A DNA stretch of 64,000 nucleotides from Candidatus Omnitrophota bacterium (GCA_037146775.1 JBAWWL010000004.1:22471-86470), one strand, 5' to 3'; counted from the stretch's first letter, positions 8,003-28,941 are shown. A program made the numbers and translations. The notes: a model not told the origin generated them from the sequence alone.

Positions 8003-8584
8003 TTAGATAGTGAAATGTTCGCTGACAATGAGATCGACTTTTTCGTCGAAAGGAGGATGAATAGGAAGGTCGTCGCAGATTTGGAAATCAAACGCAATCC
8101 CAACCTTGCTGGTTGGGGGATGTATGTTTTTCAGGAAACGGTCGTAGAAACCAGCGCCTCTGCCCAGCCGGTTTTTCTCTCGATCAAACGCGAGAGCCGG
8201 CACGATAATCATGTCTATCTCACTTGTGGTAACTTTTCTTGTCCGTGAGGACAAAGGCTGTCTTACGCCAAATGGCCCAACTGCAAAATCATCTTCTAAA
8301 TTACTGACCTGAAAAGCCTGTAATTCTTTTTTGGCTACATCCATAACCGGAAAACAGAACCGTTTTGATTTCAAATCTTTCCTAATCATCCTCAGAATAT
8401 CTACTTCTCCCTTTAGAGGAAAATACGCCATAATAACTTTTGCTTTTTTATATAAAGGTAAGTTCGATAGTCTTTCCGTAACATTGTCGCTCCTCCTTTT
8501 TAATTCCTCTGCAGTTAGCGATAAAAGTTTCGCCAATAATTTTGCCCTTAATTCTTTCTTTTCGCCACTTATAGCCATTAGCAT
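8003..8584 (-). CDS. 5-formyltetrahydrofolate cyclo-ligase
   Basis: 193 aa with KxxLRxxL... and the GxGxGYYDR motif region (RLGRGAGFYDRFL) typical of MTHFS. Confidence 0.8.
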   Translation of the reverse strand: MLMAISGEKKELRAKLLAKLLSLTAEELKRRSDNVTERLSNLPLYKKAKVIMAYFPLKGEVDILRMIRKDLKSKRFCFPVMDVAKKELQAFQVSNLEDDFAVGPFGVRQPLSSRTRKVTTSEIDMIIVPALAFDREKNRLGRGAGFYDRFLKNIHPPTSKVGIAFDFQICDDLPIHPPFDEKVDLIVSEHFTI

Positions 8585-14130: not shown

Positions 14131-15012
14131 CTATAAATGAAAGAGCGTAAGAAAATTTTTATGCGCGATTTTCTCGGCACAGCCGCTATCAAGCGCGGCA
14201 ACCGCTTTTAAACTTTCCTGGATGTTCATGTTTGCCGGATAATCGGATCCCCAAAGAATTTTGTCTTCCCCAAACATCTCAATAGCCAACCTGATATTTT
14301 GCAGCGATGAGCCGGAAGCATCAACATAAACTTTGCTTAAAATCTGAGAAGGAAGCTTGCCTAAATCTTTTACCATTTCGCGTTTGCGTAGCATCGTGTA
14401 CACCCGATCAAATCTATCTCTCAAAAATGGGGCAACGCCGCCTAAGGATGAAAAAATGAATTTTATGTTAAATTTTTCTAGGATTCCTTCCATCATCAAA
14501 AGGCCGAGAAACATAGTGCTGTCGAAGCTGTATTCGAGAACCGGCATCAACAGCGGGTCTTTGATGCGCTCGAAACCAATAGGATTTATGGTTTGCGGAT
14601 GAACAAAAATAACCAAATTGTTTTTTTCTGCCGCTTCGAACAAAGGTTGTAATTTCTCCAAAATAAATTTGCCGTCATCACTCGAGGCAATGCTAATTCC
14701 TCTGCATCCTTCTTCCCGTAAATGCCTTACTTGTATAGCTATGTTGCCGCTTAAATCCACTATACCACAAGCAACAAATCTCTGGTCATCTTCAATCAAT
14801 GCCCCCAAAGAAGAGTTATACACTTCGCAAAGCTTTGGCCAACCAAGCTTTAAATGTGCGTCGGTGGCAGGGTATACTAAGAGCGCTTTCTGAATATCGC
14901 TGGTATCCAAAAATTCCAGTAACCTCTTTTTATCCATCCAGATACCCTGGTAAAAAGAGGTGTGCTCTGCTATTGGCGGTGGAATAAAATGAATATGACT
15001 ATCACACAGCAT
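14131..15012 (-). CDS. Amidohydrolase_2 (PF04909) TIM-barrel metal-dependent hydrolase
   Basis: 293 aa with an N-terminal DSHIHF metal-binding motif and C-terminal WGSDYP, as in ACMSD-like amidohydrolases. No Shine-Dalgarno at 15012; the start is uncertain. Confidence 0.65.
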   Translation of the reverse strand: MLCDSHIHFIPPPIAEHTSFYQGIWMDKKRLLEFLDTSDIQKALLVYPATDAHLKLGWPKLCEVYNSSLGALIEDDQRFVACGIVDLSGNIAIQVRHLREEGCRGISIASSDDGKFILEKLQPLFEAAEKNNLVIFVHPQTINPIGFERIKDPLLMPVLEYSFDSTMFLGLLMMEGILEKFNIKFIFSSLGGVAPFLRDRFDRVYTMLRKREMVKDLGKLPSQILSKVYVDASGSSLQNIRLAIEMFGEDKILWGSDYPANMNIQESLKAVAALDSGCAEKIAHKNFLTLFHL

Positions 15013-15030
15013 AATTTTAGATGACCGATA

Positions 15031-15140
15031 ACAGAGGTCAGAAGACAGATGTCAGATGACAGAAGATAAAAAAATGATTTTGTCTTTATTCTGTTTTCTT
15101 AAGTCTGTCCTCTGACTTCTGATTTCTGACTTCTGTCTTT
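15031..15140. repeat. Intergenic imperfect inverted repeat, family 1 copy A (CAGANG(T)CAGA iterations ... ACAGAAGATAAA ... GTCTGTCCTCTG)
   Basis: The left arm cagaggtcagaagacagatgtcagatgacagaag (15031..15067) and the right arm gtctgtcctctgacttctgatttctgacttctgtcttt (15104..15140) are approximate reverse complements. Related copies occur at 20481..20548 and 24325..24416. Confidence 0.5.
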
Positions 15141-15143
15141 CGA

Positions 15144-16601
15144 CTATATGTGCTTCTCTCCCTTCACTGCTCCTGCTTCCCACTTAGAAACACCACGCAT
15201 AACATCCTGGAAGCAAAGTTTTGCCAGTTGATCAAAGTTACTGGTCATAATTCTCTGGATGCGTCCAGGCTTAGAGAAAAATTCCCGCATACACCACGCA
15301 CCGAGCCTTCCGTAATCTTCAAGAGAAAGATGCGTAGTGCGCATGACCGGATGGAGAAAATCCCATTTAAGAAAATCGATCTTTTTAATATCTATCTCTC
15401 CCCGCTTAACCCTCTGCCTCCAGATAGGTGAATTCGGGGCCGGAGTAACATAACCAACCCATAAAATATCCGGGTCTACCTCGTCGGTAAACTCGAATCT
15501 TTGCTTTATGGAGTACTCGGTATCATCATCAAAACCCATCATAATATCAGCCACAATAGCAATATTCTGGGCGCGCAAAATATCAATGGTTTTCTTAATC
15601 TGGTCAATCGTGATGCCTTTGGCTATTTTTTTAAGTTCCTCGGGCGTAGTAACCTCAATGCCAAATACCCCCATGAACATGCCGGTTTCTTTCATGAGGG
15701 GTAAAATCTTCTCGCAATTAACCCAATCAACGGCTCTGCCTAAAGAAACCCATTTAATGGGATTATTCTTCTCTTTTTTCAATTTACAGAATTTCTCAAC
15801 CCTGTCAGGATTGACATTAAAATTATCGTCCTGGATAACTACAACTTTGGTGCCCATTTTATGCAGAAGCTCCAACTCTTCAATCACACGCTGGGGAGAT
15901 TTTGCCCGCCAGGTAAGAAAATCCTGCGGAGAACGGGGATCATATTGATCCCATTCGTAACAAAATGTACAAGCCGAAGGGCAGCCACGAGAAGTCATCA
16001 TTTCTACAAATGGTTTCCAGAAAGTATGCCCGACGTATTTATCCATCGGAAATAAATCGTACGCGGGAAGAGGCAGTGTATCCAGATCTTGCAATAATGG
16101 TTTATGCGGGCCCATGACTGGTTTACCGTCTATCCGACTGGTAACGCCGGCAACGTCTTTCATGTTTTTCCCTTTATCTATCGCCGCAATCAAATCGCAG
16201 AAAGACTCTTCCTCTCCCATAACCACATAATCTATCGCCGGATTGTCTTCCAAGGTCTGAACCGGCAAAGCGGAATACCAGAGGCCTCCCATAACTATCT
16301 TTACTTTGGGTAAAACTTGTTTTATTCTTGCGGCAGCCTGGTTAAAATACCAGATTATACCAAAACCTACTGAACAATGAATCATATCGCCGAGGACAAC
16401 TACGTCAGGATTTTTTTCCTTAACTTTTGCGGCGAGCTCTTCAATGGGGATTCCTAAGACGGTCGCATCCAAGACTTCCAGATTATTATAACCTTTTTCG
16501 CGAATATACGCTCCCCACTGGGCATAAAGCTGGTTAGGTGCAAAGTGGTTACCATGCGTTGCCCAAGCGCCGACTTTTGGCATAACGAAAAGAATTTTCA
16601 T
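15144..16601 (-). CDS. B12-binding radical SAM protein (class B radical SAM)
   Basis: 485 aa. N-terminal cobalamin-binding Rossmann-like domain followed by a radical-SAM CxxxCxxC motif (SRGCPSACTFCYEW). Confidence 0.85.
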   Translation of the reverse strand: MKILFVMPKVGAWATHGNHFAPNQLYAQWGAYIREKGYNNLEVLDATVLGIPIEELAAKVKEKNPDVVVLGDMIHCSVGFGIIWYFNQAAARIKQVLPKVKIVMGGLWYSALPVQTLEDNPAIDYVVMGEEESFCDLIAAIDKGKNMKDVAGVTSRIDGKPVMGPHKPLLQDLDTLPLPAYDLFPMDKYVGHTFWKPFVEMMTSRGCPSACTFCYEWDQYDPRSPQDFLTWRAKSPQRVIEELELLHKMGTKVVVIQDDNFNVNPDRVEKFCKLKKEKNNPIKWVSLGRAVDWVNCEKILPLMKETGMFMGVFGIEVTTPEELKKIAKGITIDQIKKTIDILRAQNIAIVADIMMGFDDDTEYSIKQRFEFTDEVDPDILWVGYVTPAPNSPIWRQRVKRGEIDIKKIDFLKWDFLHPVMRTTHLSLEDYGRLGAWCMREFFSKPGRIQRIMTSNFDQLAKLCFQDVMRGVSKWEAGAVKGEKHI

Positions 16602-16650
16602 TGTACTCCCCCTTTTTGTGTTGTGCGACGGCGCATTAAAGCACCGGTAT

Positions 16651-17424
16651 TTATTTCTCTGGATGTTCCTGCTTATATGGTATCACCGGTTTGGTCCAGG
16701 GCGTTTGTTGATTTATAACTGCGATCTCTAAAGGACACACATTCGCCGGAACCGTCAAAGCAAACCGTACTGCATTTTCAATCGCTTCGGTGGTCATCAG
16801 ACGCGAAGCGTCTGCAGTTATTTCCTGCAATTTACCGGTTAAGTCGGTATCAGTAACCCCGGGTAAGATTGACGTAACCTTTATACCCCGATCGCGCAAT
16901 TCCCAAAATAATCCTTTTGAAAAAGCCCGTAAACCAACCTTAAGCGAACTATATACGATAAAGTTTCTGGGTAATGGGTCGCAAAGAGTCGAACCAGAAA
17001 CCATATTAATAATTGCTCCTGATTTCTTAGCTATCATATCATTGATCACTAGGCGGATTAAACGCACATAGCCCAGATAGTTAGTGTGCGCTAAGCGCTC
17101 AAAGTCCTCGATAGGCTGTTTCTCGAAAGGATACTGGCTGGAAACACCGGCGTTATTAATTAAAATATCAATATCGCCGAACGTTTCTTTCGCTTTGTTA
17201 ACCAGGTTTTCTAAGTCATTAAGCTTGGTTACGTCGCAGACTACTGGCAGAACTTTTACTTTGTATTTTTTTGCGAGCTCTTCGGCTGTTTCTTTAAGCG
17301 GGCCTTCCTGGCGCGCGGCAATAACTAGATTTATACCCAGGCTTGCGGCAGTCGACGCTATGGCTTTACCGATTCCGCGGCTTGCTCCGGTAACAACAGC
17401 AGTTTTATTCTTTAGGTTGCTCAT
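16651..17424 (-). CDS. Short-chain dehydrogenase/reductase (FabG-like ketoreductase)
   Basis: 257 aa with TGASRGIGKAIA (TGxxxGxG) and NNAG plus YxxxK catalytic motifs. Confidence 0.85.
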   Translation of the reverse strand: MSNLKNKTAVVTGASRGIGKAIASTAASLGINLVIAARQEGPLKETAEELAKKYKVKVLPVVCDVTKLNDLENLVNKAKETFGDIDILINNAGVSSQYPFEKQPIEDFERLAHTNYLGYVRLIRLVINDMIAKKSGAIINMVSGSTLCDPLPRNFIVYSSLKVGLRAFSKGLFWELRDRGIKVTSILPGVTDTDLTGKLQEITADASRLMTTEAIENAVRFALTVPANVCPLEIAVINQQTPWTKPVIPYKQEHPEK

Positions 17425-17875
17425 CCAATATCCCTCCTCTTATCGGAAATTTGCTCAATTCCGAACGTAGGTCCTCCGCCGCTTTCCGGAAATCTGCCTG
17501 GGTCAGCTGTAAATCTACCCAAAGATCGTTCATTTCTCCGTCATAAAGAGCCCAGGAAGGCCTTACGCTATATTCAAAATATATCCGCAAATTAATATAA
17601 TTTCCTGATTTACCATTTATAATAAATCGCAGGTGCGGCTTGGCAAATTTTTTTTCCGTTTCGGTTTCCTCGTCTGCCGCCAAAGCTTGGAACCAATTAA
17701 TTATACTGTCGATTTCGAATGTTTGCAGGGCCGGATCAAAAACCTTCCAGTAACCATAGGGAGTGCTGACATAGAGACCAACGATCAGCCAGTTATCTTT
17801 GCGCACGGGCGGAATTTCGTATGCGCGAATCATGAGCCCGAATTCCGAACCGTGAGGACCTTTTAAAATTAGCAT
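17405..17875 (-). CDS. Hypothetical protein (no recognisable domain)
   Basis: 156-aa ORF co-directional with the cluster and overlapping the SDR start by 20 nt. No motif recognised by eye. Confidence 0.45.
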   Translation of the reverse strand: MLILKGPHGSEFGLMIRAYEIPPVRKDNWLIVGLYVSTPYGYWKVFDPALQTFEIDSIINWFQALAADEETETEKKFAKPHLRFIINGKSGNYINLRIYFEYSVRPSWALYDGEMNDLWVDLQLTQADFRKAAEDLRSELSKFPIRGGILDEQPKE

Positions 17876-17948
17876 ATACTTACTACTCTTTACACGAAAA
17901 CTTTAGATAATATATTACCTGCAACATTGTATAATAATATCGTATTTA

Positions 17949-19070
17949 TTATGTTTTTACAACAAAATATCTGCTCGTAAATAATAATCCCGCCAGCCCT
18001 GAGCCCAGCGTTATAAAGCCGAGCATAAAACTTTTGTGCATAAGCCAGCCGGAAAAAACTACACCGCAGGCTCCGGCAATAAAACGTACTCCGCTGTTTA
18101 AGCTCGCGGCTTCGTTAAGCATATTCTTAGGTAAATCGGTAAGTGCCGCAGAAATGCCCGCGTGATTGAACGTCCAGCCCAAGCCCCACACAAGCATTAA
18201 GAGTACTAATATGGCGAGTGGACTTTTTACCAACAATAAGAATGCGCTTATAATCATAAGCGCTATCCCGACATCGGCGGTTTTCCTGCGGCCAAGTATA
18301 TCGGAAAGCCAACCACCGATCGCCTCTCCAAAAATACCGCTTAAGCTTGTCAATGTTATCAACATACTGATAAGAAACTGGTTCATTGAAAATGTGGCAG
18401 CAAAGTAAACGGAAAGCCATTGCTGTATGCCATGGTAGAATAAACTGACAAAAAATATGTAGGCAAATATCGAAATGATTGTCTTGTCTCGCAATACTGT
18501 CATGTATGGAATTTTTCTGCTGCTTCGCTGTACCACACACGAAGGCAGCCACAGATACATCAACAGCCATACTATAAAACCGATTATTGCGGGAATTAAA
18601 AAAATCATTCGCCACGGCATAATACCACTTGAGAATAATCCTGCCAGTGATGCGACAAAGGTGGCACTAAAAAATATCCCTACCAATTTTCCGCGATTTT
18701 TAGCTTCGACGCTATGGCCGATAAGAATCAAAATGAGCGGCACTACTGAAGCGCCAAAAATACCCATTAAAAAGCGTGCAAGAAATAACATATCAAGGGT
18801 GGGCGATAAAGCCGCCAGTAAGTTTGCTGCCGAAAAAAGGAAAAAACATACTAATTCGATCCTTTTTGCGTCAAACATATTCGCCAATGGCCCATAAAAA
18901 AGAGCGGCAACACCGTAAGGGAGCATATAAAGCCATACAATTCTGCCGGCAACGAAGAACTCGACGCCGAAATCACCGGCTATTGAAGGGATAAGAGCGG
19001 CGCAGGCGGCAACATTGAAAGATAAAACCGCGCCCTCTAAACAAAGTATTATAAAAGTAAGTTTTCTCAT
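17949..19070 (-). CDS. Major facilitator superfamily transporter
   Basis: 373 aa with about 11-12 predicted hydrophobic helices. MFS signature-like GxLaDrxGrkxxl region (GGWLSDILGRRKT). Confidence 0.8.
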   Translation of the reverse strand: MRKLTFIILCLEGAVLSFNVAACAALIPSIAGDFGVEFFVAGRIVWLYMLPYGVAALFYGPLANMFDAKRIELVCFFLFSAANLLAALSPTLDMLFLARFLMGIFGASVVPLILILIGHSVEAKNRGKLVGIFFSATFVASLAGLFSSGIMPWRMIFLIPAIIGFIVWLLMYLWLPSCVVQRSSRKIPYMTVLRDKTIISIFAYIFFVSLFYHGIQQWLSVYFAATFSMNQFLISMLITLTSLSGIFGEAIGGWLSDILGRRKTADVGIALMIISAFLLLVKSPLAILVLLMLVWGLGWTFNHAGISAALTDLPKNMLNEAASLNSGVRFIAGACGVVFSGWLMHKSFMLGFITLGSGLAGLLFTSRYFVVKT

Positions 19071-19096
19071 TTATTATTGATTGCGTTGATTAGATA

Positions 19097-19150
19097 CAGA
19101 TTACACAGATTTTTATAATCGGTGCAATCATTGTCCTAATCTGTGTAATC
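19097..19150. repeat. Perfect 12-bp-stem hairpin (gattacacagat/atctgtgtaatc), family 3; shares the 18-mer tcctaatctgtgtaatca with 26089..26106
   Basis: Stem arms at 19099..19110 and 19139..19150. The right arm overlaps the stop codon of the SRPBCC gene. An identical 18-mer recurs 7 kb away. Confidence 0.45.
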
Positions 19151-19619
19151 ATTTCATCGTAGAGATTTCTTTTTCAATTACTTCCTTAAAAATTTTTAAA
19201 TTGTCTTTTGAATGTTTATTAATAAAGCCTTCGACCTGTTCATCATTGAATTTCGCTTTTTCATCCATCTCAAAATGCTGGATCCAAGTCATCTCAATGC
19301 CTGTGGTGCGCGGGGTATACAACCAGATGATTTTCATAAACTTAAAAGGAAACTTCGGCTCTTCTCTTTCGGCATAGGCAAGATATTTATCTTTAAATAA
19401 TAAGCGCCATGATTGCCAACTGCGATTTTCGTCATCGGTAAGTTTAAAAGTAATTTTATTGTTTTCCTTTTTAACAACCTCGGCCTTTTTATATTCTCCG
19501 CCGAACAGCTCTGTCCAGCGCGTAATATCATTAGAAATATCAAAGATCTTTTCGTAGGGTGCATTGATAACAATTGAATTAACTGTATGTCCCATTTGTT
19601 CCTCCTTTATATTGTTCAA
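19149..19619 (-). CDS. SRPBCC (START/Bet v1-like, polyketide cyclase/dehydrase family) protein
   Basis: 156 aa, the size and pattern of Polyketide_cyc2-type proteins. Lies adjacent to the cyclase, ACP and KS genes. Confidence 0.6.
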   Translation of the reverse strand: MNNIKEEQMGHTVNSIVINAPYEKIFDISNDITRWTELFGGEYKKAEVVKKENNKITFKLTDDENRSWQSWRLLFKDKYLAYAEREEPKFPFKFMKIIWLYTPRTTGIEMTWIQHFEMDEKAKFNDEQVEGFINKHSKDNLKIFKEVIEKEISTMK

Positions 19620-19626
19620 AGTTTAG

Positions 19627-19678
19627 AGTTCAATGTTCAATGAATACTCTCTGAACACTGAACGTTTAACATTGAACT
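19627..19678. repeat. Hairpin with 11-bp perfect stem (agttcaatgtt/aacattgaact), family 2 (GTTCAAYG half-sites); related copy at 41609..41639
   Basis: Seen directly in the sequence. The right arm overlaps the stop codon of the cyclase gene. Confidence 0.4.
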
Positions 19679-20474
19679 ATAATATTGCTACTACTCTCGC
19701 CCAGGCAGCTCCGGTAGTTTTAATTTTTACCGGAAAACAAATTACTTTAAATCCGAAATCCGGCAATTGCTCCAAATGAGCTAAGCGTTCTATATGGATA
19801 AACTCTCTTTTACGGCCGTAGAAATGCGTAGGGTATAGCTTCTTGGGATCTTTTGTTTCTAAAAACTCTTTGAGCATAAATTTATAAGGCCGGTCTATAC
19901 CCATGGTATCTACTCCAAAGATCGTAATACCTTTATCTAAAAGATAATCTATCGCCGAAATATCTACTCCTGGATAATCGCTAAAATATTTTTGCCCGCC
20001 GTATAATTTATCCGCCCCGGTACGTAAAAGTACAATGTCTAAGGCTTTGAGCGAATAATTTATTTTCTTTAATGCTGCCTCGATGTCGGCAGCAATAATG
20101 ACTTCATTTGGTTTTTTATGCGAAACGTCAAGTTTTACACCGTTTTGATAACACCACTGGAGAGGAATTTCTTCGGCGGTCTTTGAGGCGCGGCCTTCGG
20201 ACTTTGAACCGTAATGAAATGAGTAATCCAAGTGTGTTCCGATGTGTACTGGCGAATGCACTATTTCCAAAGACAAGAACTCTTCGTCGGGCAAGTCTTC
20301 TTTTCTTACAATACGCTTACCTAATATATATTGGAGTTTACCTTTAAGGGTTTTACCCATCAATACGCGGTTGAATTTTTCAACGCCTGCCTGATGAGAC
20401 ACACGCTCAATCTCCACATGGTGGACTTCAAAGGCCTTATCGTCTATGGGAAGGCTTAGGTCGATTATTTGCAT
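19677..20474 (-). CDS. PF04199 'putative cyclase' family protein (kynurenine formamidase-like fold)
   Basis: 265 aa with the HxGTHxD metal motif (HIGTHLDYSFH) characteristic of the cyclase/arylformamidase family. Confidence 0.75.
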   Translation of the reverse strand: MQIIDLSLPIDDKAFEVHHVEIERVSHQAGVEKFNRVLMGKTLKGKLQYILGKRIVRKEDLPDEEFLSLEIVHSPVHIGTHLDYSFHYGSKSEGRASKTAEEIPLQWCYQNGVKLDVSHKKPNEVIIAADIEAALKKINYSLKALDIVLLRTGADKLYGGQKYFSDYPGVDISAIDYLLDKGITIFGVDTMGIDRPYKFMLKEFLETKDPKKLYPTHFYGRKREFIHIERLAHLEQLPDFGFKVICFPVKIKTTGAAWARVVAIL

Positions 20475-20480
20475 ATTTTG

Positions 20481-20548
20481 TTTCTGAAGTCAGAAGACAG
20501 ACGTCAGAAGTCAGATTTTTCTGTCCTCTGTTTTCTGTCATCTGTCAT
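20481..20548. repeat. Intergenic inverted repeat, family 1 copy B
   Basis: The left arm tctgaagtcagaagacagacgtcagaagtcaga, then tttttc, then tgtcctctgttttctgtcatctgtcatct. It shares cagaagtcaga and ctgtcctctg blocks with copies A and C. It sits between the ACP stop and the cyclase start, ending 6 nt before the cyclase ATG. Confidence 0.5.
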
Positions 20549-20557
20549 CTAATTTTA

Positions 20558-20788
20558 TCACTTCTTCTTTTCAATTAGTTGTGCAATTTCAAGTGGTGTT
20601 GAAAATTTAGAGATCTCATTAGCCGCGAGTTTAACGCCAAAACGCTTGCCCAACGAAACACAAAGCTCAACCATTTCGGTTGAATCCACTCCTATAGAAT
20701 CGTATAATTTTTCACTTTCGCCAATTTCATCCACTTTCACATCCAAGATATCTGCGATTGCGTTTACGACATCCTCTTTTGAAGCCAT
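20558..20788 (-). CDS. Acyl carrier protein
   Basis: 76 aa with a phosphopantetheine-attachment motif (GVDSTEMVEL) in the standard helix II position. Confidence 0.85.
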   Translation of the reverse strand: MASKEDVVNAIADILDVKVDEIGESEKLYDSIGVDSTEMVELCVSLGKRFGVKLAANEISKFSTPLEIAQLIEKKK

Positions 20789-20821
20789 ATTCCCTCCTTT
20801 GATATAAGTAATTTTAATTTT

Positions 20822-21826
20822 TTATTTCAAACTATGTTTCTTGAAAAATTCCCAAATCTGCTCGAATGATATATCGCAAGAAACAGGTCCAACCATATTC
20901 GCTGGTAAATACTGCGCTCCACTGGGATACGCGTGCCCCATTCCTTCTACCATACATAACACAACTTCTGAACCTTGTGCGCAATCGTTATAGATCACGC
21001 ACCTCGCTGCGCCGTTTTCGTATCCGGCGACCTGTTTATCTGAACATTGGTTTATCTTTTTCCATACATCCACCACTTGATAAGGAGTCATCCTTTGATA
21101 GGGCATAGCAAAACCTGTACCACTATCTTTAGCAAAAATACTTCTTGGTTCGCTACCGTCGGGAGGATTGGCTGGATCAGCCGTACCGTGGATATTCATT
21201 ACCGGCATTGACCGGGACGGTTGGCATTCTGATTTTACTGCAGCGGGAGTCACAGTAGCAATAGCTGCTATTTTTTCTGAAAGTTCGCAGCCAAGCCGAT
21301 TAGTCATCAAACCACCGTTCGAAATACCGGTAGCATAAATCCTTCTGGCATCAACTTTAAATTTCGCTTTCAATTCGTCTATCATTTTGGAAATAAAGCC
21401 TACGTCGTCGGCGGAACCGCAACATTCGCCGGTTGCCCATTTCCCACCATTCCAAACTCCTCTTAAATGCCCAAATGTTAACTCGCCGGTTCCTTCCGGA
21501 ACCGCCAAGATAAAACCAAATTTATCTGCTGCTTTATCTACACCATCCATATAGACTGCTCGCATATCGCCAGAGCCTCCATGGATATAGATAACAACTG
21601 CAAAAATCGTTTTTCCGTCATAGGCTGGCGGGAGATGAACCTTATATTTTCTAATTATTCCGTCATGCGCTAAAGAAAATTCCGGATCGTCAGCACCGTA
21701 AGACTTTTCTTTCTTTTCTTGTGGGCGTTTCTTTATTTTTTCCTTCAAAATATTTTGAGCGGAAACGCTGGAAGAAAATACAAATAAAATACTCAATATC
21801 GCAATTATAGCTTTGTGCTTTTCCAT
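20822..21826 (-). CDS. Secreted alpha/beta-hydrolase esterase of the PHB-depolymerase (LpqC/Esterase_PHB) type
   Basis: Trimmed to MEKHKAIIAILSILFVFSSSVSA... (signal peptide). IYIHGGSG and GISNGG (GxSxG nucleophile elbow) motifs. Its ATG overlaps the KS-beta stop as TAATG. Confidence 0.65.
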   Translation of the reverse strand: MEKHKAIIAILSILFVFSSSVSAQNILKEKIKKRPQEKKEKSYGADDPEFSLAHDGIIRKYKVHLPPAYDGKTIFAVVIYIHGGSGDMRAVYMDGVDKAADKFGFILAVPEGTGELTFGHLRGVWNGGKWATGECCGSADDVGFISKMIDELKAKFKVDARRIYATGISNGGLMTNRLGCELSEKIAAIATVTPAAVKSECQPSRSMPVMNIHGTADPANPPDGSEPRSIFAKDSGTGFAMPYQRMTPYQVVDVWKKINQCSDKQVAGYENGAARCVIYNDCAQGSEVVLCMVEGMGHAYPSGAQYLPANMVGPVSCDISFEQIWEFFKKHSLK

Positions 21827-23070
21827 TACTTCTCTACTGCCAACACCACATTTATCCCGCCGCGGCCGCGCGCCAACAACAATGCTTTTTTTATCTTCTT
21901 TTCGCGGGCAACGTTCGGCGTATAGTCGAGATCGCAATAAGGGTCTGCCATTTCATAATTGACGGTAGGAAGAACTAAATTATTGTTCATGGAAAGCAGA
22001 GTTATGATCAAATCTAGGGCTGTTTGTGCACCCAAGAGATTTCCGTACATACTTTTCGGCGCACTGAGACTAATGTGTTCTAATTCTTTACCGAATACAT
22101 GTTTTAAGGCTTGCGTCTCCAGATAATCGCCCATCACGGTCGCCTCAGCATCAAGACAAATATAATCTATTTCTTTCTTGGTCCAACCCGCATCCCGAAG
22201 GCATTCCTCTATCGCATATTCGAGCATATCCGGGGTTGGGCTATAGCGCTGGTAATGATACCCGTCTGAAGAAAATCCAACACCCCTCAAAAATCCGTAA
22301 ATATGCGCGCCTCGGGACTTGGCGTGTTCTTCTTTTTCTAAATTGACTATGCCTGAGCCTTCGCCCAAAACAAAACCATCACGGTATAAATCATAGGGTT
22401 TATACGCTTTTTTCGGATTAAGGTTGTTCTTAGACAATTGTCCGCAGGAATTTGAACTTAAAAGCGCGTAAGGCGTGATGGGCGCTTCCATTCCTCCGGC
22501 TAAAATATAATCATTTTTTCCTTCACTAATATTTTTCGCGCCATACCACAGGGCAAGCGCCGAAGAAGCTTTATCGCATACAACCGTTTTGCTGTAACCC
22601 TTAAAACCGTAATAAATAGTGATCTGACCTTGCGGAGCTGCAGGAAACCATGCGCTGGCCATATAGGGTGAGACCCCTTCTCTACCTTCAATATACATAT
22701 CGCGCAGTTCTGTTTCCGCAAAAAGCCAACCCCCTATCGCATTACCCATAAAAACACCGACACGTTTTTTATCTACTTTATCCAAATCTACTTTTGCATC
22801 CTGCAACGCTTGCTCGCTGGCAACAAGTGCCATATGTGAAAACACGTCTATTTTTTTCACCAAGCGGCTGGGCAGATGCGAATAATGGTCAAGTTCGTGA
22901 ACTTGGCCGGCAATACGTGAAGGATACAAAGAAGCATCAAAACGCGTAATCTCGTCTATAAAGGATTTGCATTTTTTTAGGTTCGCCCAAAAAGTTTCTT
23001 TTTTTAAACCCGCGGGAGAAACAACGCCGATGCCGGTTATAGCAACTCTTTCTTTCATCATACTCTCCAT
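21826..23070 (-). CDS. Ketosynthase paralogue lacking the catalytic His-His pair (chain-length-factor-like KS-beta)
   Basis: 414 aa with a thiolase/KAS fold. The HGTGT and GHxxGAAG His motifs present in the adjacent KS are replaced by CLDAEATVMGDY and NLLGAQTALD. The active-site Cys region is altered (VVCDKASSAL). 13-nt overlap with the upstream KS. Confidence 0.75.
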   Translation of the reverse strand: MESMMKERVAITGIGVVSPAGLKKETFWANLKKCKSFIDEITRFDASLYPSRIAGQVHELDHYSHLPSRLVKKIDVFSHMALVASEQALQDAKVDLDKVDKKRVGVFMGNAIGGWLFAETELRDMYIEGREGVSPYMASAWFPAAPQGQITIYYGFKGYSKTVVCDKASSALALWYGAKNISEGKNDYILAGGMEAPITPYALLSSNSCGQLSKNNLNPKKAYKPYDLYRDGFVLGEGSGIVNLEKEEHAKSRGAHIYGFLRGVGFSSDGYHYQRYSPTPDMLEYAIEECLRDAGWTKKEIDYICLDAEATVMGDYLETQALKHVFGKELEHISLSAPKSMYGNLLGAQTALDLIITLLSMNNNLVLPTVNYEMADPYCDLDYTPNVAREKKIKKALLLARGRGGINVVLAVEK

Positions 23071-24308
23071 TTTTTGAATATAATAGACGAATGTATTCCG
23101 GAAAATCCACTGCTGGTTTTCAAAATATAATTAGGCATATATTGCCTTTTTACATTGGGAATATAATCTAAGTCACATTTCGGGTCAGGTTCTTCCTGGT
23201 TTATCGTGGGAGGTAAATAGCCTTTTTCGAAAATCATCGCGCATAAAACACTTTCTACTGCGTTCGCCGCAGCCAAGGGGTGTCCGATCATCGACTTCAC
23301 TGAACTGATAGGCAATTTATATGCGTAATCGCCGAATACTGCCTTATAGGCGTTAGTCTCAAAAACGTCGTTTTGACGGGTAGATGACCCGTGAGTGTTG
23401 ATATAATCTATATCTTCATTTTTTATTCCTGCGTCTTTAATTGCGTCTTTAATGCAGCGCTCCATTGCTTCGCCATCTTCCGGCAGATCGGTCATATGAA
23501 AGGCATTGCAACTGGTACCGTAACCGACTAATTCTCCATAAATATGCACACCTCTTTTTTTGGCGTGTTCAAGTTCTTCCAAAACTAAAACCCCGGCGCC
23601 TTCGGAAATTACAAAACCATTTCTCTTGTTATCAAAGGGACGGCTGGCTTTGTGTGGTTCGTCGTTGTTCTTAGCCAAAACATTAACTACGTCAAACGCG
23701 CCAAAGGTAATCGGACACACCGGCGCCTCCGTGCCTCCGGCGATAATCATGTCTTGCCGGCCTTCTCGGATAAGTTCGAAAGAAAATCCGAGCGAATCCG
23801 TTGCGGCGGTACAGCCGGTAGAAACTGTACAATTGAGTCCCTGTGTATGATAGAGAGCTCCTATTTCGGCACTCGGCGTATTAAACATGGCTGCATCATA
23901 AAGATATGGCCGGCCCTTACGCGGATCGATAGGTTTTTTACCCCAATCGGTTACCAACAAGAATTCCTCTTCCATGAAGCGCGTACCGCAGATAGCGTTA
24001 GCCAAAACGACTCCGCATCTTTTCCTGTCTATCTTGTTAAAATCAATATGGCTGTCCTCAACTGCCTGCTTGGCCGCGGCAATACCAAACTGTACATATC
24101 TATCCATGCGTATATGGTCTTTTATTCCGAATTTTAACGGGTCAAAACCTAAATCTTGTGAGGCTATTTTTGAGACAAATAAGCTTACGTCAAAATTTTC
24201 AACCCTTTCAACAAAAGGTTTACCCGCAATAAGGTTGTCGTAAAAAGTATTCTTATCTTCTCCTGCCGCGCTGATTACCCCGATTCCTGTTATAACTACA
24301 CGTTTCAT
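23058..24308 (-). CDS. Beta-ketoacyl synthase (KS-alpha; FabF/type II PKS KS family)
   Basis: 416 aa. Active-site Cys in VSTGCTAATDSLG, His in YINTHGSST and His in MIGHPLAAA. Confidence 0.85.
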   Translation of the reverse strand: MKRVVITGIGVISAAGEDKNTFYDNLIAGKPFVERVENFDVSLFVSKIASQDLGFDPLKFGIKDHIRMDRYVQFGIAAAKQAVEDSHIDFNKIDRKRCGVVLANAICGTRFMEEEFLLVTDWGKKPIDPRKGRPYLYDAAMFNTPSAEIGALYHTQGLNCTVSTGCTAATDSLGFSFELIREGRQDMIIAGGTEAPVCPITFGAFDVVNVLAKNNDEPHKASRPFDNKRNGFVISEGAGVLVLEELEHAKKRGVHIYGELVGYGTSCNAFHMTDLPEDGEAMERCIKDAIKDAGIKNEDIDYINTHGSSTRQNDVFETNAYKAVFGDYAYKLPISSVKSMIGHPLAAANAVESVLCAMIFEKGYLPPTINQEEPDPKCDLDYIPNVKRQYMPNYILKTSSGFSGIHSSIIFKKWRV

Positions 24309-24324
24309 TTTTTACCTCTTATTA

Positions 24325-24416
24325 TCAGAAGTCAGACGTCAGAGGACAGAGAACAGAAGATAAATTTTTCTGTCGTCCACCATCTGTCACCTATCGTCTG
24401 TCCTCTGTTTTCTGCT
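24325..24416. repeat. Inverted repeat, family 1 copy C (left arm intergenic, right arm overlapping the last 8 codons of the ApbA-fusion gene)
   Basis: atcagaagtcagacgtcagaggacagagaacagaagataaa ... gtctgtcctctgttttctg. It shares acagaagataaa and gtctgtcctctg with copy A. Confidence 0.5.
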
Positions 24417-26027
24417 CACCTTAAACACTATATTTCCTCCGTCAGGACAAGTCACTGTATTAATACCGTCCGGATCATCCATAAAGAAAAACTTTGCGCC
24501 GAAGTTAAGAGCAAATAACGCAGGAAAAGCGCAATGATATGCCGCACCACAGAAACCTTCCGAACATTTCAGCCCCTTAACTTCAAATTTATCTCCCAGC
24601 TTATACTGATACGCACATTTTCCTTTTGCTTGCACTACTTCTAAAACCATATCTTTAGGGTTGGGCCCTTTATGATTCGGGTCTTTTTCTATTGTTTCTA
24701 TATTTCCTTCTTTGTCAAATATTTCCGCTTTAAACTCTAATTTTCCTCCATCAGGACAAGTCACTAAAAGCGATCGTTGATTATCTCTAAAAGGAAATTT
24801 TGCGCCAAAACTTAAAGCATAAATAACAGGAAATAATGCGTGCGCCAGCCCCAGACAAAAATGCTTGGGGGGATGAGTGAAATCTTCCAAGATAATTTCA
24901 TCACCAATCTTGTAGCCGTGGTAACAATCTCCTTCTACTTTATTGACGGTAAGTTTCAAGCGTGGAAAGGGCGTATTAACTCTTTCTTCGCCCGCCAAAG
25001 TGGCTGCCTGAGGAATCAAATTCTTGGTTTTTGCAACAAGCTCGTCTATGGTTAGAAACTTTTTATCTTTCTCTACTTTATGCACAAGTTCAGCAAGTTT
25101 TTTATTGAGCGGGGTGTGGTAAGAGCATTCTTTTCCTAATTCCATAAAAGCTCCATTTAAATAATCAATTTCTGAAGGCCGGTCCCGCTTGATACTTTGC
25201 AATATTGAGCCATAAAGCGGCTCCTTGCTTAAACCGACCATGATGCCAGAAAATATTTTAGCTGCGTCTTTTATCGGCAAAGACGTTAATTTTACTATTT
25301 GTTCAATGCGAAAATCGGGTAAATCAAACAGCTTTATTCCCGCTTTTCTTACGACACCAAGGCCCTCCTGCCATATGCCGATACTTATTTCGCATAAATC
25401 CAAATTAGCGAAACACTCCTGCATACTTTTTCCGGTAATGGCGGGAATGCAGTTGTTGGCGTTAGCAAAAACTTTCAGCCACTTCATTCCCATAATATTA
25501 TCGCTCACTTCAACGGGAAAAATTTTGCTTAGTATATTCTTTACCTCTGCAACGCTGCTGTCGTTTTTAGCGTAAGGCTTGCCTATTACCCATTTTCTGT
25601 CGAAGTTATGCACCACCTTCCCCGGCTCTAAATAGGTTGAGCCAAACATCACAATGCTAGAAATAATATTTTCTCGAGCGGTATACCTGGAAACAATTTC
25701 ATCAGCTTTTACGCCATTTTGGGTGGTTACAATAGGCGTATTTTCTAAATATTTTCGGTTTTGTTCCAAAGCATTTTCTATATCCTGGGTTTTGGTTGCC
25801 AAAATAATAAGGTCTACCTGAGTATTAAGTTTTTCAAAAACATCGATTTTGATTTTGAAATTTCCCCTCACACCGGAGATTTGCAGACCATTTTTAACTA
25901 TAGCGCTGACAGAGTCTTTATGCCCAACCAAAAAGATATCTTGGTTGGCTTCCTTTAGATACCCAGCAACCAAACCTCCAATAGCCCCCGAACCTATAAC
26001 CGCTATTTTCATACTCGCTCCGCTCAT
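24387..26027 (-). CDS. Ketopantoate reductase (ApbA/PanE)-family NAD(P) oxidoreductase fused to two C-terminal Cys/His-rich ~85-aa repeats (motif C-x2-[YH]...FC...FP...FGAKF.F.D...CPDGG..FK)
   Basis: The N-terminal IAVIGSGAIGG Rossmann motif and ApbA-like body cover roughly residues 1-330. Two tandem repeats cover residues about 375-455 and 460-540, each ending in an invariant V-T-CPDGG block. Confidence 0.65.
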   Translation of the reverse strand: MSGASMKIAVIGSGAIGGLVAGYLKEANQDIFLVGHKDSVSAIVKNGLQISGVRGNFKIKIDVFEKLNTQVDLIILATKTQDIENALEQNRKYLENTPIVTTQNGVKADEIVSRYTARENIISSIVMFGSTYLEPGKVVHNFDRKWVIGKPYAKNDSSVAEVKNILSKIFPVEVSDNIMGMKWLKVFANANNCIPAITGKSMQECFANLDLCEISIGIWQEGLGVVRKAGIKLFDLPDFRIEQIVKLTSLPIKDAAKIFSGIMVGLSKEPLYGSILQSIKRDRPSEIDYLNGAFMELGKECSYHTPLNKKLAELVHKVEKDKKFLTIDELVAKTKNLIPQAATLAGEERVNTPFPRLKLTVNKVEGDCYHGYKIGDEIILEDFTHPPKHFCLGLAHALFPVIYALSFGAKFPFRDNQRSLLVTCPDGGKLEFKAEIFDKEGNIETIEKDPNHKGPNPKDMVLEVVQAKGKCAYQYKLGDKFEVKGLKCSEGFCGAAYHCAFPALFALNFGAKFFFMDDPDGINTVTCPDGGNIVFKVSRKQRTDDR

Positions 26028-26030
26028 ATT

Positions 26031-26106
26031 GATTACACTGATTGAGAAAAGATTACAGTGATTTTAATTGCTATTGCTGTAATCACTCTCCTAATCTGTG
26101 TAATCA
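26031..26106. repeat. Nested hairpins, family 3 copy (gattacac/gtgtaatc outer stem, gattacag/ctgtaatc inner stem; contains the 18-mer tcctaatctgtgtaatca)
   Basis: Seen directly in the 82-bp spacer between the 26110 stop and the 26027 start. Confidence 0.4.
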
Positions 26107-26109
26107 ATT

Positions 26110-26373
26110 TTATGTTTGTATGTATTTTTCGTATTCAATACCAAGCTTAGTAAATAATCTTTTCATCATATCCTTGAATGCCGGAGGAATTTCCTTGAAA
26201 AATGCTTCCACCAGCTCTTTCTCTTCTACGCTTGTCAGATTTTTACTTTTGGCAATTTCTTCCGCCGACTCCTTAACCAATCTTTCGGCAATAGTACGGT
26301 GAAATTGCGGCAAATTGCTGATTACTTTATCGAATATTTCTTTTGCCTTTGGACTCCATTGCATATCAGACAT
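26110..26373 (-). CDS. Small alpha-helical protein of unknown function (weak resemblance to PCP_red-type domain)
   Basis: 87 aa. The W-SPKA-E...LPQFHRTIAERLVKESAE pattern resembles the W..EA...PxFVR motif of the protochlorophyllide-reductase C-terminal (PF08369-like) module. Low confidence. Confidence 0.4.
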   Translation of the reverse strand: MSDMQWSPKAKEIFDKVISNLPQFHRTIAERLVKESAEEIAKSKNLTSVEEKELVEAFFKEIPPAFKDMMKRLFTKLGIEYEKYIQT

Positions 26374-26464
26374 ATTTTAACTCCTTAATTCGCAGAAATC
26401 TAACCGATATATAGGATAGGCGCGAGGGATAATGGCAGAAGCGGATTGCCGCGGATATCCGCTT

Positions 26465-27190
26465 CTAAATTATTTCAAATACCGCCCTGGTCATCTTTTC
26501 TTCCGCATCGAATAGCCGAAAATCAGCGAAACCCATTTCACCGGTAAGCAAGTTATCCGAAGCTACCAATACCGCGGCTACTTTCCTTTTGTAGACATTA
26601 GCAATAGTCACGAACGGACTGGTCACCATGTCGACACAAATAGCGCCTTTTTCTATGTAAGGATTTACGATCTCTTTGGTTTCCCTAAACATCGCGTCCG
26701 TTGTCCAACAGCCGCCCTGATACACCGTTCCTTCTTTCTTGAAGATTGCCGCTAATTTACCGGTTAATTCTTTATCTACCTGAGAAACAAACTTTTCATC
26801 CACATAGTAACGCGTAGCGCCGTCGCCCCTGATAACTTTATCGACTACAACAAAATCTCCCACAGTCATTTCCTGCAACATCCCTCCGCAAGAACCCAAA
26901 CGAATAAGCGTCTGTATTCCTCCTACGCATAATATTTCTGTAACGAACGCTGAATCGGGGGCATAGAAGCCGCCGTTACCTACGGTGACTTTTTTTCCTT
27001 TGTACGTTCCGGTCCAAAAGGTATATCCTAAAAATGTAAAATTTTTTACGGGGTTTCCCAGATATTGAAGGCAACGCTGAGCTCGCTGCATTTGACCGCT
27101 GATAATACCGATTTCGCCAAAGTCTCCCGGCCTAAACTGTAAAGACTCTAGTAACCCCTTCGCATGCAGATGAACATCTCTTTGCATCAT
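26465..27190 (-). CDS. PNP_UDP_1 family nucleoside phosphorylase/nucleosidase (MTA/SAH-nucleosidase or futalosine-hydrolase-like)
   Basis: 241 aa with GxGGxxTL-type phosphate-binding and a fold pattern (TVGNGGFYAPDS..., VGGIQTLIRLGSCGG) typical of PF01048. Confidence 0.7.
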   Translation of the reverse strand: MMQRDVHLHAKGLLESLQFRPGDFGEIGIISGQMQRAQRCLQYLGNPVKNFTFLGYTFWTGTYKGKKVTVGNGGFYAPDSAFVTEILCVGGIQTLIRLGSCGGMLQEMTVGDFVVVDKVIRGDGATRYYVDEKFVSQVDKELTGKLAAIFKKEGTVYQGGCWTTDAMFRETKEIVNPYIEKGAICVDMVTSPFVTIANVYKRKVAAVLVASDNLLTGEMGFADFRLFDAEEKMTRAVFEII

Positions 27191-27243
27191 AAGCGCAACT
27201 CCTTTGTAAATAGAAATAAATCCTCGTTAATATACTCGCGGTT

Positions 27244-28788
27244 TTATACTGACCCCGCGCTGTTTTCTCGTTTAGTTTTGCGTGTATTCGCTGCTATTAA
27301 TTTTGTTTTATCGATCTTGCCTACCCTATTTTTTGGCAATTCTTTTACATATTCAAAGTAGTGTGGGATCTTAAAATGCGCCAGGTGAACTTTTAAAAAT
27401 TCTTTCAGCTCATCCAGGGCTATCGGTTCGCCGTCCTTGGTTACGATAAATGCCTTGGGTACTTCGCCGCGCAACTCATCGGGCAAACCGATCACTGCAA
27501 CTTCTTTTATGTTCGGATGACGCTGCATCTTTTCTTCTACCTCGGCTGAGAATACAATCTCTCCCGCGACTTTTATCATATCCTTTTTCCTTCCTACCAG
27601 ATAAAAAAGCCCCTCCTTACAATAGGCGACATCGCCGGTTTTAAGCCATCCGTCGCCGGTCAAAACAGCCTGTGTCATCTGCGGCGCTTTATAATAACAT
27701 ACCATCACGCCATCGCCCTTCACCAAAAGCTCCCCTGTTTCGCCATACAATAATTTATTTCCTTTGTCATCCACTACTTTTGCGTCCATCCGGAAACCGA
27801 AGCTACCAATACTGTCTATGGCTTTTCCGTCCGGGGGCGAATAGGTGTTCGGAGCTGCTGTTTCTGTCATTCCCCAGCCGTTTAGTAATATCGCCTTGGG
27901 GCAAGAACGATGGAATTTTTTCAAAAGTTCCGGTGATGACGGTGCGCCAAAAACTACCGCATAGCGTAATGATGCCAACTCATAATAATCGTATTCTTTC
28001 AACGATAAAATCGCCACATACATCGCCGGTACGATACAAAATATGGTTACTTTATATTTTTCGATGTTTTTGAGAAACTCTAGCGGATGAAAGCGCTCCA
28101 TAAGCACCATTGTGGAAGCAAAACGAAGCATTAAAAGAATATAATCAAGGCCTCCGATGTGAGAGAAAGGTACGCCACCAGTAAGAAAAATATCTTTATC
28201 CGAAACTCCTAAAAAATGGTTGATGGTATCAACCGGGTTATCCAGATGCTTGTAACTAAGCATGACCCCTTTGGGATTACCAGTTGAGCCCGAGGTATAA
28301 AATAAAGAAGAAATATCGCTGTCTTTAATCTCTATCTTTGGCTCTGCCTCGGTATTATTAGCTAAAACATCATCCCAAAGAAGACACCCTCTCACCCTTT
28401 CCTTGCACACAATTACGTCTTTGAGCGAAGAGCAGGCGTTTTTAATATTCATGATATTGATATCTTTTCTCGGCTGGATAATTAATATTTTCGCTTCGCA
28501 ATGGTTTAAGATATCAATAATTTCTTCTTCGGTAAGCATAAAGTCGAGTGGAACAAGTGTTAACCCGGCACAAAAAACCGCTATGTAGCTATAGACCGCT
28601 TCGGGGATATTTGAAAGAAAAAGCGCTACCTTGTCTGGTTTTCTAACTCGCGCGCCGTAAAGATAATTAGCCAATCTAAAAGAAGGCCCCTTAAGTTGCG
28701 CAAAAGTAATATTCTGTCCCTCGAAAATAATTGCTGGTTTTTCGGGATACGAAGAAACTTGTTTGAGTAATAATTCTTTTACATTCAT
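27244..28788 (-). CDS. AMP-dependent synthetase/ligase (acyl/aryl-CoA or acyl-ACP ligase)
   Basis: 514 aa with the AMP-binding motif YTSGSTGNPKGV, the TGD motif (LKTGD) and the C-terminal PKNRVGKIDK lysine motif. Confidence 0.85.
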   Translation of the reverse strand: MNVKELLLKQVSSYPEKPAIIFEGQNITFAQLKGPSFRLANYLYGARVRKPDKVALFLSNIPEAVYSYIAVFCAGLTLVPLDFMLTEEEIIDILNHCEAKILIIQPRKDINIMNIKNACSSLKDVIVCKERVRGCLLWDDVLANNTEAEPKIEIKDSDISSLFYTSGSTGNPKGVMLSYKHLDNPVDTINHFLGVSDKDIFLTGGVPFSHIGGLDYILLMLRFASTMVLMERFHPLEFLKNIEKYKVTIFCIVPAMYVAILSLKEYDYYELASLRYAVVFGAPSSPELLKKFHRSCPKAILLNGWGMTETAAPNTYSPPDGKAIDSIGSFGFRMDAKVVDDKGNKLLYGETGELLVKGDGVMVCYYKAPQMTQAVLTGDGWLKTGDVAYCKEGLFYLVGRKKDMIKVAGEIVFSAEVEEKMQRHPNIKEVAVIGLPDELRGEVPKAFIVTKDGEPIALDELKEFLKVHLAHFKIPHYFEYVKELPKNRVGKIDKTKLIAANTRKTKRENSAGSV

Positions 28789-28913
28789 ATTTTACCTCCC
28801 GGAAATACAATACACACACGCCGCAGCCTTGTATACAAGAGCATATACCAGGTTAGCCCATAATAACTTCACCCTAAAGCAGGGTTATGTTATAGTAAAA
28901 TTTAAATAGTAAA

Positions 28914-28941
28914 ATTTTACTATTATTTGTTTTTTAGTCAA
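28914..28941 (-). promoter_or_regulatory. Putative sigma70-type promoter (TTGACT-16 nt-TAAAAT on the minus strand) in the 335-bp leader upstream of the AMP-ligase gene, overlapped by the perfect palindrome tagtaaaattttacta
   Basis: Minus-strand reading gives ...gccTTGACTaaaaaacaaataatagTAAAATtttacta.... The palindrome at 28903..28918 overlaps the -10 element and its first 10 nt recur 10 bp upstream as tagtaaaatt (28893..28902). Confidence 0.3.

Follow-up and report, generated by a model that had tools for sequence, protein, structure and literature searches.

Tandem repeats of 7-nt units are the commonest long simple-sequence repeats (LSSRs) in bacteria and are ascribed to polymerase slippage, at least in the account of Mrazek (2007) that is relayed by a later paper (PMC4679880). 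Earlier records include the heptamer repeats of Cyanobacteria and the TAACTGA repeats beside start codons (PMC4679880, PMC4692102), as well as the GGGAATC repeats of Xanthomonas and the GGGGAYT repeats of Nostoc, which lie in operon gaps and occasionally form inverted pairs (PMC4692102). Here, we analyze a 64,000-nt stretch of DNA from a Candidatus Omnitrophota bacterium (GCA_037146775.1 JBAWWL010000004.1:22471-86470; hereafter, the window), in which three CAGA-rich elements, A, B, and C, lie at gene junctions of a single biosynthetic operon. We lean, modestly, toward the view that these elements are palindromic simple-sequence repeats of a WCAGARG heptamer that act as intercistronic RNA hairpins in this operon; their function is something that we infer.

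The three elements follow a common plan, i.e., a head-to-tail run of four to eight 7-nt WCAGARG units, an A/T-rich spacer of decayed units, and the same run inverted, while the number of units and the loop vary from copy to copy. The unit series of A, for instance, reads ACAGAGG TCAGAAG ACAGATG TCAGATG ACAGAAG. Several lines of evidence set these elements apart from random sequence. First, CAGANGNCAGA is matched 16 times in the window, always within A, B, or C, while 0.24 +/- 0.53 are expected and none of 100 shuffles attains 16. Second, Tandem Repeats Finder returns period-7 arrays for both arms of A, both arms of B, and the left arm of C, and a unit-chaining script finds CAGA-phased units in opposite orientation on the paired arms of each element (5+6 in A, 4+4 in B, and 5+5 in C). 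Third, folding of the coding (minus) strand gives -45.4 kcal/mol (z -6.7) for A, -27.2 kcal/mol (z -4.7) for B, and -38.1 kcal/mol (z -4.7) for C, and none of 200 dinucleotide shuffles matches the fold of any of them. The predicted imperfect stem-loops span 60-120 nt, and their stems are rich in A/U and G.U pairs and are interrupted by a mismatch at intervals of about 7 nt; because of this spacing, none of the three was detected by a generic inverted-repeat finder that uses 9-nt seeds. Thus, the first-pass annotation of this DNA, which had placed three CAGA-unit elements at 15031..15140, 20481..20548, and 24325..24416, holds up on their existence, on their 7-nt units in both orientations, and on their folding (z -4.7 to -6.7). 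It had also pointed to a block shared by A and C, ACAGAAGATAAA, which is indeed present (15059-15070 and 24352-24363) but does not mark the family: we rejected it as a signature because CAGANGNCAGANNACAGAAGATAAA occurs in 32 metagenome stretches of unrelated context. The block is CAGAAGA decaying into the A/T-rich loop. Rfam returned no match for the elements at the gathering threshold and, at an E-value threshold, only sub-threshold generic microRNA-precursor hairpin models on A.

All three elements fill gene junctions, as the first-pass annotation had stated, and C overruns one of them. The hairpin of A (15025..15143, minus strand; identified by folding, Tandem Repeats Finder, and unit chaining) occupies the 131-nt gap between the stop codon of a B12-radical S-adenosylmethionine (SAM) gene at 15144 and the start of an amidohydrolase gene at 15012, and the z score of this gap is -8.5. 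Read on the plus strand, it consists of a CAGA-unit arm (15031-15066), an A/T-rich decayed center (15067-15086), and a TCTG-unit arm (15087-15140). The hairpin of B (20486..20549, minus strand; identified by the same three methods, gap z -8.6) has arms at 20491-20518 and 20517-20544 and fills the gap between the acyl carrier protein (ACP) stop codon at 20558 and the cyclase ATG at 20474. It ends 6 nt before this ATG by its originally assigned limits and 11 nt before it when counted from the foot of the folded stem; between stem and ATG there is no Shine-Dalgarno-like run, in line with the earlier claim that B displaces this signal. The start codons abutted by A and B both lack a Shine-Dalgarno sequence. 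The hairpin of C (24325..24416, minus strand; identified by folding and unit chaining) lies between the ApbA-fusion gene and the ketosynthase gene KS-alpha, with arms at 24326-24360 and 24366-24414. Its 5' arm, in the mRNA sense, covers the end of the ApbA-fusion gene, as had been noted, except that the overlap (24387-24416) comprises the last nine codons (SRKQRTDDR) and the stop codon rather than eight codons. Six of these codons, QRTDDR, are specific to this lineage and stand in place of an ancestral end reading ...FKVSRKK*. In the predicted fold of C, the outermost unit of the 3' arm, ACUUCU, is paired with the KS-alpha Shine-Dalgarno sequence AGAGGU.

The host operon (14131..28788, minus strand) was delineated from open reading frame (ORF) calls and Pfam domains, and its gene order is kept in eight orthologous loci (L122-L129), giving nine loci when the window is counted. 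In the order of transcription, it encodes an AMP-ligase, PNP_UDP_1, DUF2621, the ApbA fusion, KS-alpha, KS-beta, an esterase, the ACP, the cyclase, SRPBCC, MFS, a WapI-like protein, SDR, the B12-radical SAM protein, and the amidohydrolase; all window ORFs of at least 100 amino acids with recognizable domains are on the minus strand. The best minus-strand promoter call (28907..28941) combines TTGACT (28941-28936), a 16-nt spacer, and TAAAAT (28919-28914), and a 16-nt palindrome, TAGTAAAATTTTACTA, overlaps its -10 region (28907-28922). An unchanged copy of this palindrome precedes the AMP-ligase gene in each of the nine loci (L122 5261-5276, L123 2013-2028, L124 5491-5506, L125 6011-6026, L126 5348-5363, L127 4312-4327, L128 5748-5763, and L129 5620-5635), and it is kept exactly although the coding DNA of these loci is just about 70-80% identical. 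It is probably the operator of a repressor. A conserved promoter palindrome ahead of the AMP-ligase gene makes A, B, and C internal to one operon and, because they lie downstream of this promoter/operator and have no terminator features, they are expected to be transcribed as part of a polycistronic mRNA.

CAGA elements do not account for all punctuation of the cluster, contrary to what the first-pass annotation implied, as there are three more periodic hairpins on the minus strand. One, with GATTACAC/CAGATTA units and a period of about 9, lies in the MFS/SRPBCC gap (19071..19148; gap z -4.7; -20.2 kcal/mol, z -5.3); another, with heptameric GTTCART units, was detected by Tandem Repeats Finder and an inverted-repeat scan in the SRPBCC/cyclase gap (19620..19676; gap z -5.6); and the third, again of the GATTACAC family, lies in the ApbA/DUF2621 gap (26028..26109; gap z -7.3; -29.1 kcal/mol, z -8.6), its unit type being also present in L123. 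We folded every window gap of at least 35 nt and took z <= -4.7 as strong structure. Six of the 11 operon gaps reach this value, and a seventh is that of C, which attains z -4.7 only if the arm overrunning the ApbA coding end is counted; the structured sites of the operon are, thus, A, B, C, 19071-19148, 26028-26109, 19620-19676, and the promoter region. By contrast, none of 21 gaps in the rest of the window and none of six in a further 5.6 kb are structured. The window and these 5.6 kb make up the 69.6 kb of readable DNA of the source genome; the only other contig of the source organism, L001, is 100% identical. The 69.6 kb contain three CAGA arrays, all in this one operon. The first-pass annotation would have treated the copies as cluster-specific regulatory sites if only three occurred and their folds were weak; three is the number seen in these 69.6 kb, but the folds are strong.

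The comparison with the orthologous operons separates position from sequence. CAGA arrays are absent from L122-L125, the loci scanned for them. Instead, hairpins built from other periodic units fill the matching junctions in seven of the eight orthologous operons. Their units include some with a period of 7 (TCAGCYN, AYAGTCS, AGCGCAW, GTAAGCY, GTTGTRA, GATGCTN, and CACAAAT), 9 (GTTACGAAN), or 10 (CRCAGATNNN, GCGGATNNNN, and CACGAATNNN); of 30 such hairpins, 18 fit a period of 7 best, eight a period of 10, and four a period of 9. According to our own reading of the hairpin scans over the nine loci, the ApbA/KS-alpha junction and the ACP/cyclase junction each carry a hairpin in seven and the radical SAM/amidohydrolase junction in six; these three, the sites of the CAGA copies in the window, are the most consistently occupied of all. 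Hairpin occupancy at these junctions recurs while the unit sequence turns over. The gene pairs that flank the A, B, and C junctions overlap or abut in L128 and L129, which are compact. The ancestral ApbA C terminus, ...FKVSRKK*, is that of L126 and L127, and in four lineages independently an element has come to encode a new tail (QRTDDR in the window and VSL, NADTRKSNADIRR, and SP elsewhere). In L122, hairpins of this kind are also found in gaps outside the operon.

Beyond the Omnitrophota, the CAGA-type unit is widespread. The string CAGANGWCAGANGWCAGANGWCAGA occurs in at least 120 stretches of a genome collection, where we estimate about 0.5 by chance, and in at least 120 viral stretches, compared with 28-32 for each of three composition-matched permuted heptamers. 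Heptamer arrays are, therefore, common in general, and the CAGA-type unit exceeds these controls at least fourfold. Among the genome matches listed, the hosts include Verrucomicrobiota, Planctomycetota, Acidobacteriota, Desulfobacterota, Nitrospirota, Omnitrophota, Gallionella, Accumulibacter, Cyanobacteria, and others, and the G+C content of the loci ranges from 32 to 72%. Some other genomes hold four to seven arrays per 7-13 kb. Over the 120 genome loci listed, 48% of the arrays overlap long stop-to-stop ORFs compared with 84% of random positions. These loci also led us to reject the idea that the CAGA arrays spread together with the biosynthetic cluster, as no cluster protein is encoded near the arrays in any of them. 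Unpaired arrays have no orientation bias upstream of start codons (6 vs. 7 and 15 vs. 14); after stop codons, the CAGA sense is favored about 2:1 among unpaired arrays, a ratio that rests on crude ORF calls. A search of the literature for the repeat strings returned just primers for Coxiella together with unrelated eukaryotic primers. The Coxiella burnetii variable-number tandem repeat loci ms24 and ms33 have 7-bp units, and their primers contain the CAGAGGA unit, carry CAGAGGACAG, and read ...GGACAGAGGACAGT and TAGGCAGAGGACAGAGGACAGT; isolates carry 7-13 or 27 units at ms24 and four or 6-9 units at ms33 (PMC1488860). Such copy-number variation shows that the CAGAGGA-type unit is prone to slippage.

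We counted as an inverted pair any two arrays of one family that face opposite ways within 150 nt of each other. In 107 of 114 such cases over three families, the unit array comes first and its complement second. The ratio of unit-first to reversed pairs is 31:2 for CAGANGW in genomes, 17:0 for CAGANGW in viral stretches, and 51:3 and 8:2 for TCAGCNN and YAGTCNN, both in viral stretches. All seven reversed cases have their arrays 83-116 nt apart and are, therefore, neighboring elements rather than true pairs. The direction of transcription cannot cause this polarity because the arrangement is identical when read on either strand, and stability cannot cause it because both polarities yield the same duplex. 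A purine-first rule was considered and rejected, as it fails in the TCAGCNN family (21 vs. 14). The fixed polarity would be explained most simply if each hairpin spread as an intact unit or was produced by a directional process. A far broader proposal is that polar short-unit palindromes of the form 5'-(..YAG..)n, loop, (..CTR..)n-3' constitute a widespread and hitherto undescribed kind of intercistronic element in bacteria and phages, generated or copied by a dedicated directional mechanism and acting as exchangeable RNA hairpins at set operon junctions, where structure and position would endure and the unit sequence would be replaced; we offer it tentatively, as an idea that is more likely to fail than to hold in this form.

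In our preferred reading of A, B, and C as intercistronic RNA hairpins, the arrays would arise and alter in length by replication slippage, the property that is exploited in Coxiella ms24 and ms33, and the hairpins, given the fixed polarity of the pairs, would be copied whole or be made by a directional process. We propose that the inserts are tolerated, and perhaps retained, at these junctions because folding brings the stop codon of the preceding gene back to the start codon of the next; these gene pairs abut or overlap in the compact orthologs, and A and B leave the genes after them without a Shine-Dalgarno sequence. The stem-loops would probably form barriers or processing sites between cistrons and thereby fix the stability of mRNA segments, with the ApbA/KS-alpha and ACP/cyclase hairpins bracketing the minimal KS-alpha/KS-beta/ACP unit. 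REP (repetitive extragenic palindromic) elements of Escherichia coli have a role as stabilizers of mRNA 3' ends, and a role in segment stability would work as it does for REP elements in E. coli operons. The source genome encodes RNase Y, which may bear on this role; the RNase Y and YmdB genes adjoin each other in the window (6384-7964 and 5363-6160), an observation of relevance to the processing of intercistronic hairpins. In the case of C, the unit of the 3' arm that resembles an anti-Shine-Dalgarno sequence may in addition mask the KS-alpha ribosome-binding site.

Several observations weigh against this reading. L128 has no hairpin at any junction and L129 has hairpins at only three; therefore, hairpins are dispensable for the operon. 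Over the hairpins compared, the sense strand folds more stably in 22 and the antisense strand in 12, which is not a significant difference (Wilcoxon p = 0.13), and an RNA role is, therefore, not separated from that of a palindrome at the DNA level. The elements overrun coding ends and differ from lineage to lineage, which fits tolerated selfish or neutral DNA equally well. Moreover, the count of copies is based on 69.6 kb and not on the whole source genome, and each functional step in the proposal is one that we infer.

It is possible, though unlikely, that the elements are non-autonomous mobile elements, akin to miniature inverted-repeat transposable elements (MITEs) or to REPINs, the hairpin-forming doublets of REP sequences, and that they are copied whole by an enzyme encoded elsewhere, with any effect on the operon being incidental. 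Such copying would explain a polarity that is fixed in three families (48:2, 51:3, and 8:2), where independent local inverted duplications would yield about 50:50, and it would fit the presence of one family in many phyla and viral contigs, the different families at matching junctions of the relatives, the intrusion into coding ends, and the hairpins outside the operon in L122. The first-pass annotation had likewise suggested a REP/MITE-like repeat, and, among the three ideas it put forward, the REP-like one comes nearest: the elements are intergenic, internal to an operon, imperfectly palindromic, and lineage specific, and similar arrays occur in many genomes. However, A, B, and C have no REP-type head, common foot, non-repeat core, or terminal inverted repeats distinct from the arms, and no target-site duplication surrounds any of them; the window ORFs scanned against Pfam include no transposase, REP-associated tyrosine transposase (RAYT), or reverse transcriptase, and the window holds no insertion sequence. 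Unit number and loop also vary from copy to copy, and the three copies in 69.6 kb are confined to one operon. A Y1 (IS200/IS605-type) transposase gene directly downstream of the operon in L123 (17751-17986) has its own perfect, non-periodic 16-bp hairpin in front of it (AACCGCTTTCCACCTACGAGGTGGAAAGCGGTT), and no link of this hairpin to the periodic ones was found. We consider it rather improbable that the elements are neutral slippage expansions that have no role and gather wherever a gap tolerates them. The attribution of bacterial heptamer repeats to slippage in the relayed account cited above, the fact that any heptamer array lies far above chance (the control heptamers still reach 28-32 viral stretches), and the existence of L128, which works with no hairpins, speak for such expansions; but slippage alone yields neither inverted partners nor a fixed polarity, structured gaps are confined to the operon in the source genome DNA analyzed (6-7 of 11 compared with 0 of 27 elsewhere), and the three junctions are occupied in most relatives despite total turnover of sequence.

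Protein binding is a still less probable explanation, in our estimate a decidedly weak one. In this case, a DNA-binding factor would recognize the CAGA repeats, as the regulator-binding array of the first-pass annotation implied, or a protein of the S1, CsrA, or cold-shock type would bind the pyrimidine-rich arm in RNA near the start codon. A and B do lie directly beside start codons without a Shine-Dalgarno sequence, paralleling the TAACTGA repeats of Beggiatoaceae (PMC4679880), and a viral contig, L230 (IMGVR_UViG_3300033076_001536, 58% G+C), carries seven direct (CCTCTGA)n arrays just 5' of start codons. Yet the unit is not kept at orthologous junctions, where CAGA units are absent and other units stand, the same units recur in unrelated contexts across phyla, the conserved operator of the operon is elsewhere (28907-28922), unpaired arrays lack an orientation preference before start codons, and the arm that would have to be single stranded is paired in the hairpin. 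Least probable of all, to the point that we give it hardly any credence, is that the elements are leaky intrinsic terminators or attenuators that split the cluster into transcription units, a version of the shared terminators that had been proposed for them. The stem-loops are strong, and the 3' arm is rich in U and C on either strand, but no U-tract follows the stems of A, B, or C (the tails read UUAUCGGUCAUC, AGAAACAAAAU, and AUAAUAAGAGG), a terminator scan of the window has no terminator-like call at any of them, and the window promoter scan has no convincing promoter after them. In addition, the stems are A/U and G.U rich with a mismatch at about every seventh nucleotide, and the sites lie inside an operon that is compact in relatives, between genes that abut or overlap in L128 and L129.

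Some further observations concern the arrays and the operon themselves. The arrays of L230 have 4-8 units and lie in short gaps just 5' of co-directional start codons without Shine-Dalgarno sequences (positions include 58-99, 4176-4224, 7695-7750, 8375-8409, 8989-9016, and 12389-12416), an arrangement that resembles that of TAACTGA in Beggiatoaceae. Composite elements, in which different unit families are nested or lie side by side in one hairpin or gap, occur in L140 (around 1227-1251), L133 (around 5930-6050), and L155 (around 947-971); they combine AGTGATA outside CAGAAGN, CAGA followed by CRCAGATNNN and CAATAGT, and ACGCTGA followed by CAGAAGA. Thus, unit families co-occur in the same genomes. 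In the operon, unrelated genes are present between the cluster genes, differing from genome to genome, and encode, among others, a WapI-like immunity protein, an esterase, TPR proteins, a signal peptidase, ORF6N, and a NucS-like protein (window 17405-17875 and 20822-21937; L122 13880-14659; L123 9403-10272 and 11462-11695; L125 11507-12195 and 14980-16388). Thus, not only hairpins but also entire genes can be accommodated at the operon junctions. The cluster, which resembles a type II polyketide synthase and encodes KS-alpha, KS-beta, an ACP, cyclases of two types, SDR, the B12-radical SAM protein, and ApbA fused to a duplicated C-terminal domain, is found throughout the Omnitrophota, and its KS-alpha is 76-96% identical across the phylum at the amino acid level. 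The KS-alpha genes of the relatives are 76-82% identical to that of the window in nucleotides and 95-96% in amino acids. Recent horizontal transfer of the operon was rejected because the nucleotide identity is just 76-82%, which points to old divergence of the genomes with the operon under strong purifying selection. The DXS protein of the source genome, which is metagenome assembled, has a 100% identical match named Candidatus Omnitrophota and is 65-73% identical to those of the next Omnitrophota relatives, and a KS-alpha identity of 95-96% occurs between genomes whose DXS proteins are just 73% identical; in one relative, both genes are apparently on the same 47,424-bp contig.

Heptamer repeats are the most over-represented LSSRs of bacteria and have no accepted function or origin. 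The Omnitrophota operon provides a comparison series in which at least ten unit families occupy the same few junctions of one conserved operon and one relative is free of hairpins; thus, position, structure, and sequence can be tested separately. Because neither thermodynamics nor the direction of transcription explains the polarity of the pairs, it constrains how the elements arise. There is a practical consequence as well: by extending into gene ends and eliminating Shine-Dalgarno sequences, such arrays influence how genes are called and operons modeled in genomes of uncultivated phyla.

Compared with known repeat classes, A, B, and C share with LSSRs and with short tandemly repeated repetitive sequences (STRRs) their tandem 7-nt units above chance and their intergenic position, which extends to gaps within operons such as pecE-pecF, and in both cases length and sequence differ between related genomes; the inverted pairs of Xanthomonas could also form stem-loops (Mazel 1990; Mrazek 2007; PMC4692102). 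In the window family, by contrast, inversion is the rule, the unit is WCAGARG, the host belongs to the Omnitrophota, and the polarity of the pairs is fixed, and the Omnitrophota hairpins occupy matching operon junctions from genome to genome although their units differ. The Coxiella loci ms24 and ms33, compared here by their primers only, have the same unit as the window elements but are direct arrays used for typing, for which no hairpin partner or role at operon junctions is described. The TAACTGA repeats of marine Beggiatoaceae, Cyanobacteria, and Bacteroidetes are likewise heptamers, with a CTGA/TCAG core and a patchy spread across phyla, and lie just upstream of start codons without canonical ribosome-binding sites, where a posttranscriptional role is suspected (MacGregor 2015, PMC4679880). 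They comprise 169 direct sets and one indirect set (PMC4679880), whereas the window elements are self-folding inverted pairs of another unit and do not belong to this class, A and B sharing with it only their nearness to start codons that lack a Shine-Dalgarno sequence. Nor do A, B, and C match MITEs, as no duplication flanks them, or intrinsic terminators, which are defined by a G+C-rich stem with a U-tract directly after it. REPs, bacterial interspersed mosaic elements (BIMEs), and REPINs are similar in being imperfect palindromes in transcribed intergenic regions in or after operons and in being lineage specific, and in REPINs the hairpin doublet is the evolving unit (PMC3116915). REPs are, however, unique palindromes of 20-40 nt with a conserved GTAG-type head and a RAYT partner (PMC3116915), while the window elements are headless hairpins of tandem 7-nt units that share with REPs their place in transcribed operon gaps. 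Altogether, what is new here is the Omnitrophota host, the conservation of hairpin position with replacement of hairpin sequence in a conserved operon, and the polarity rule.

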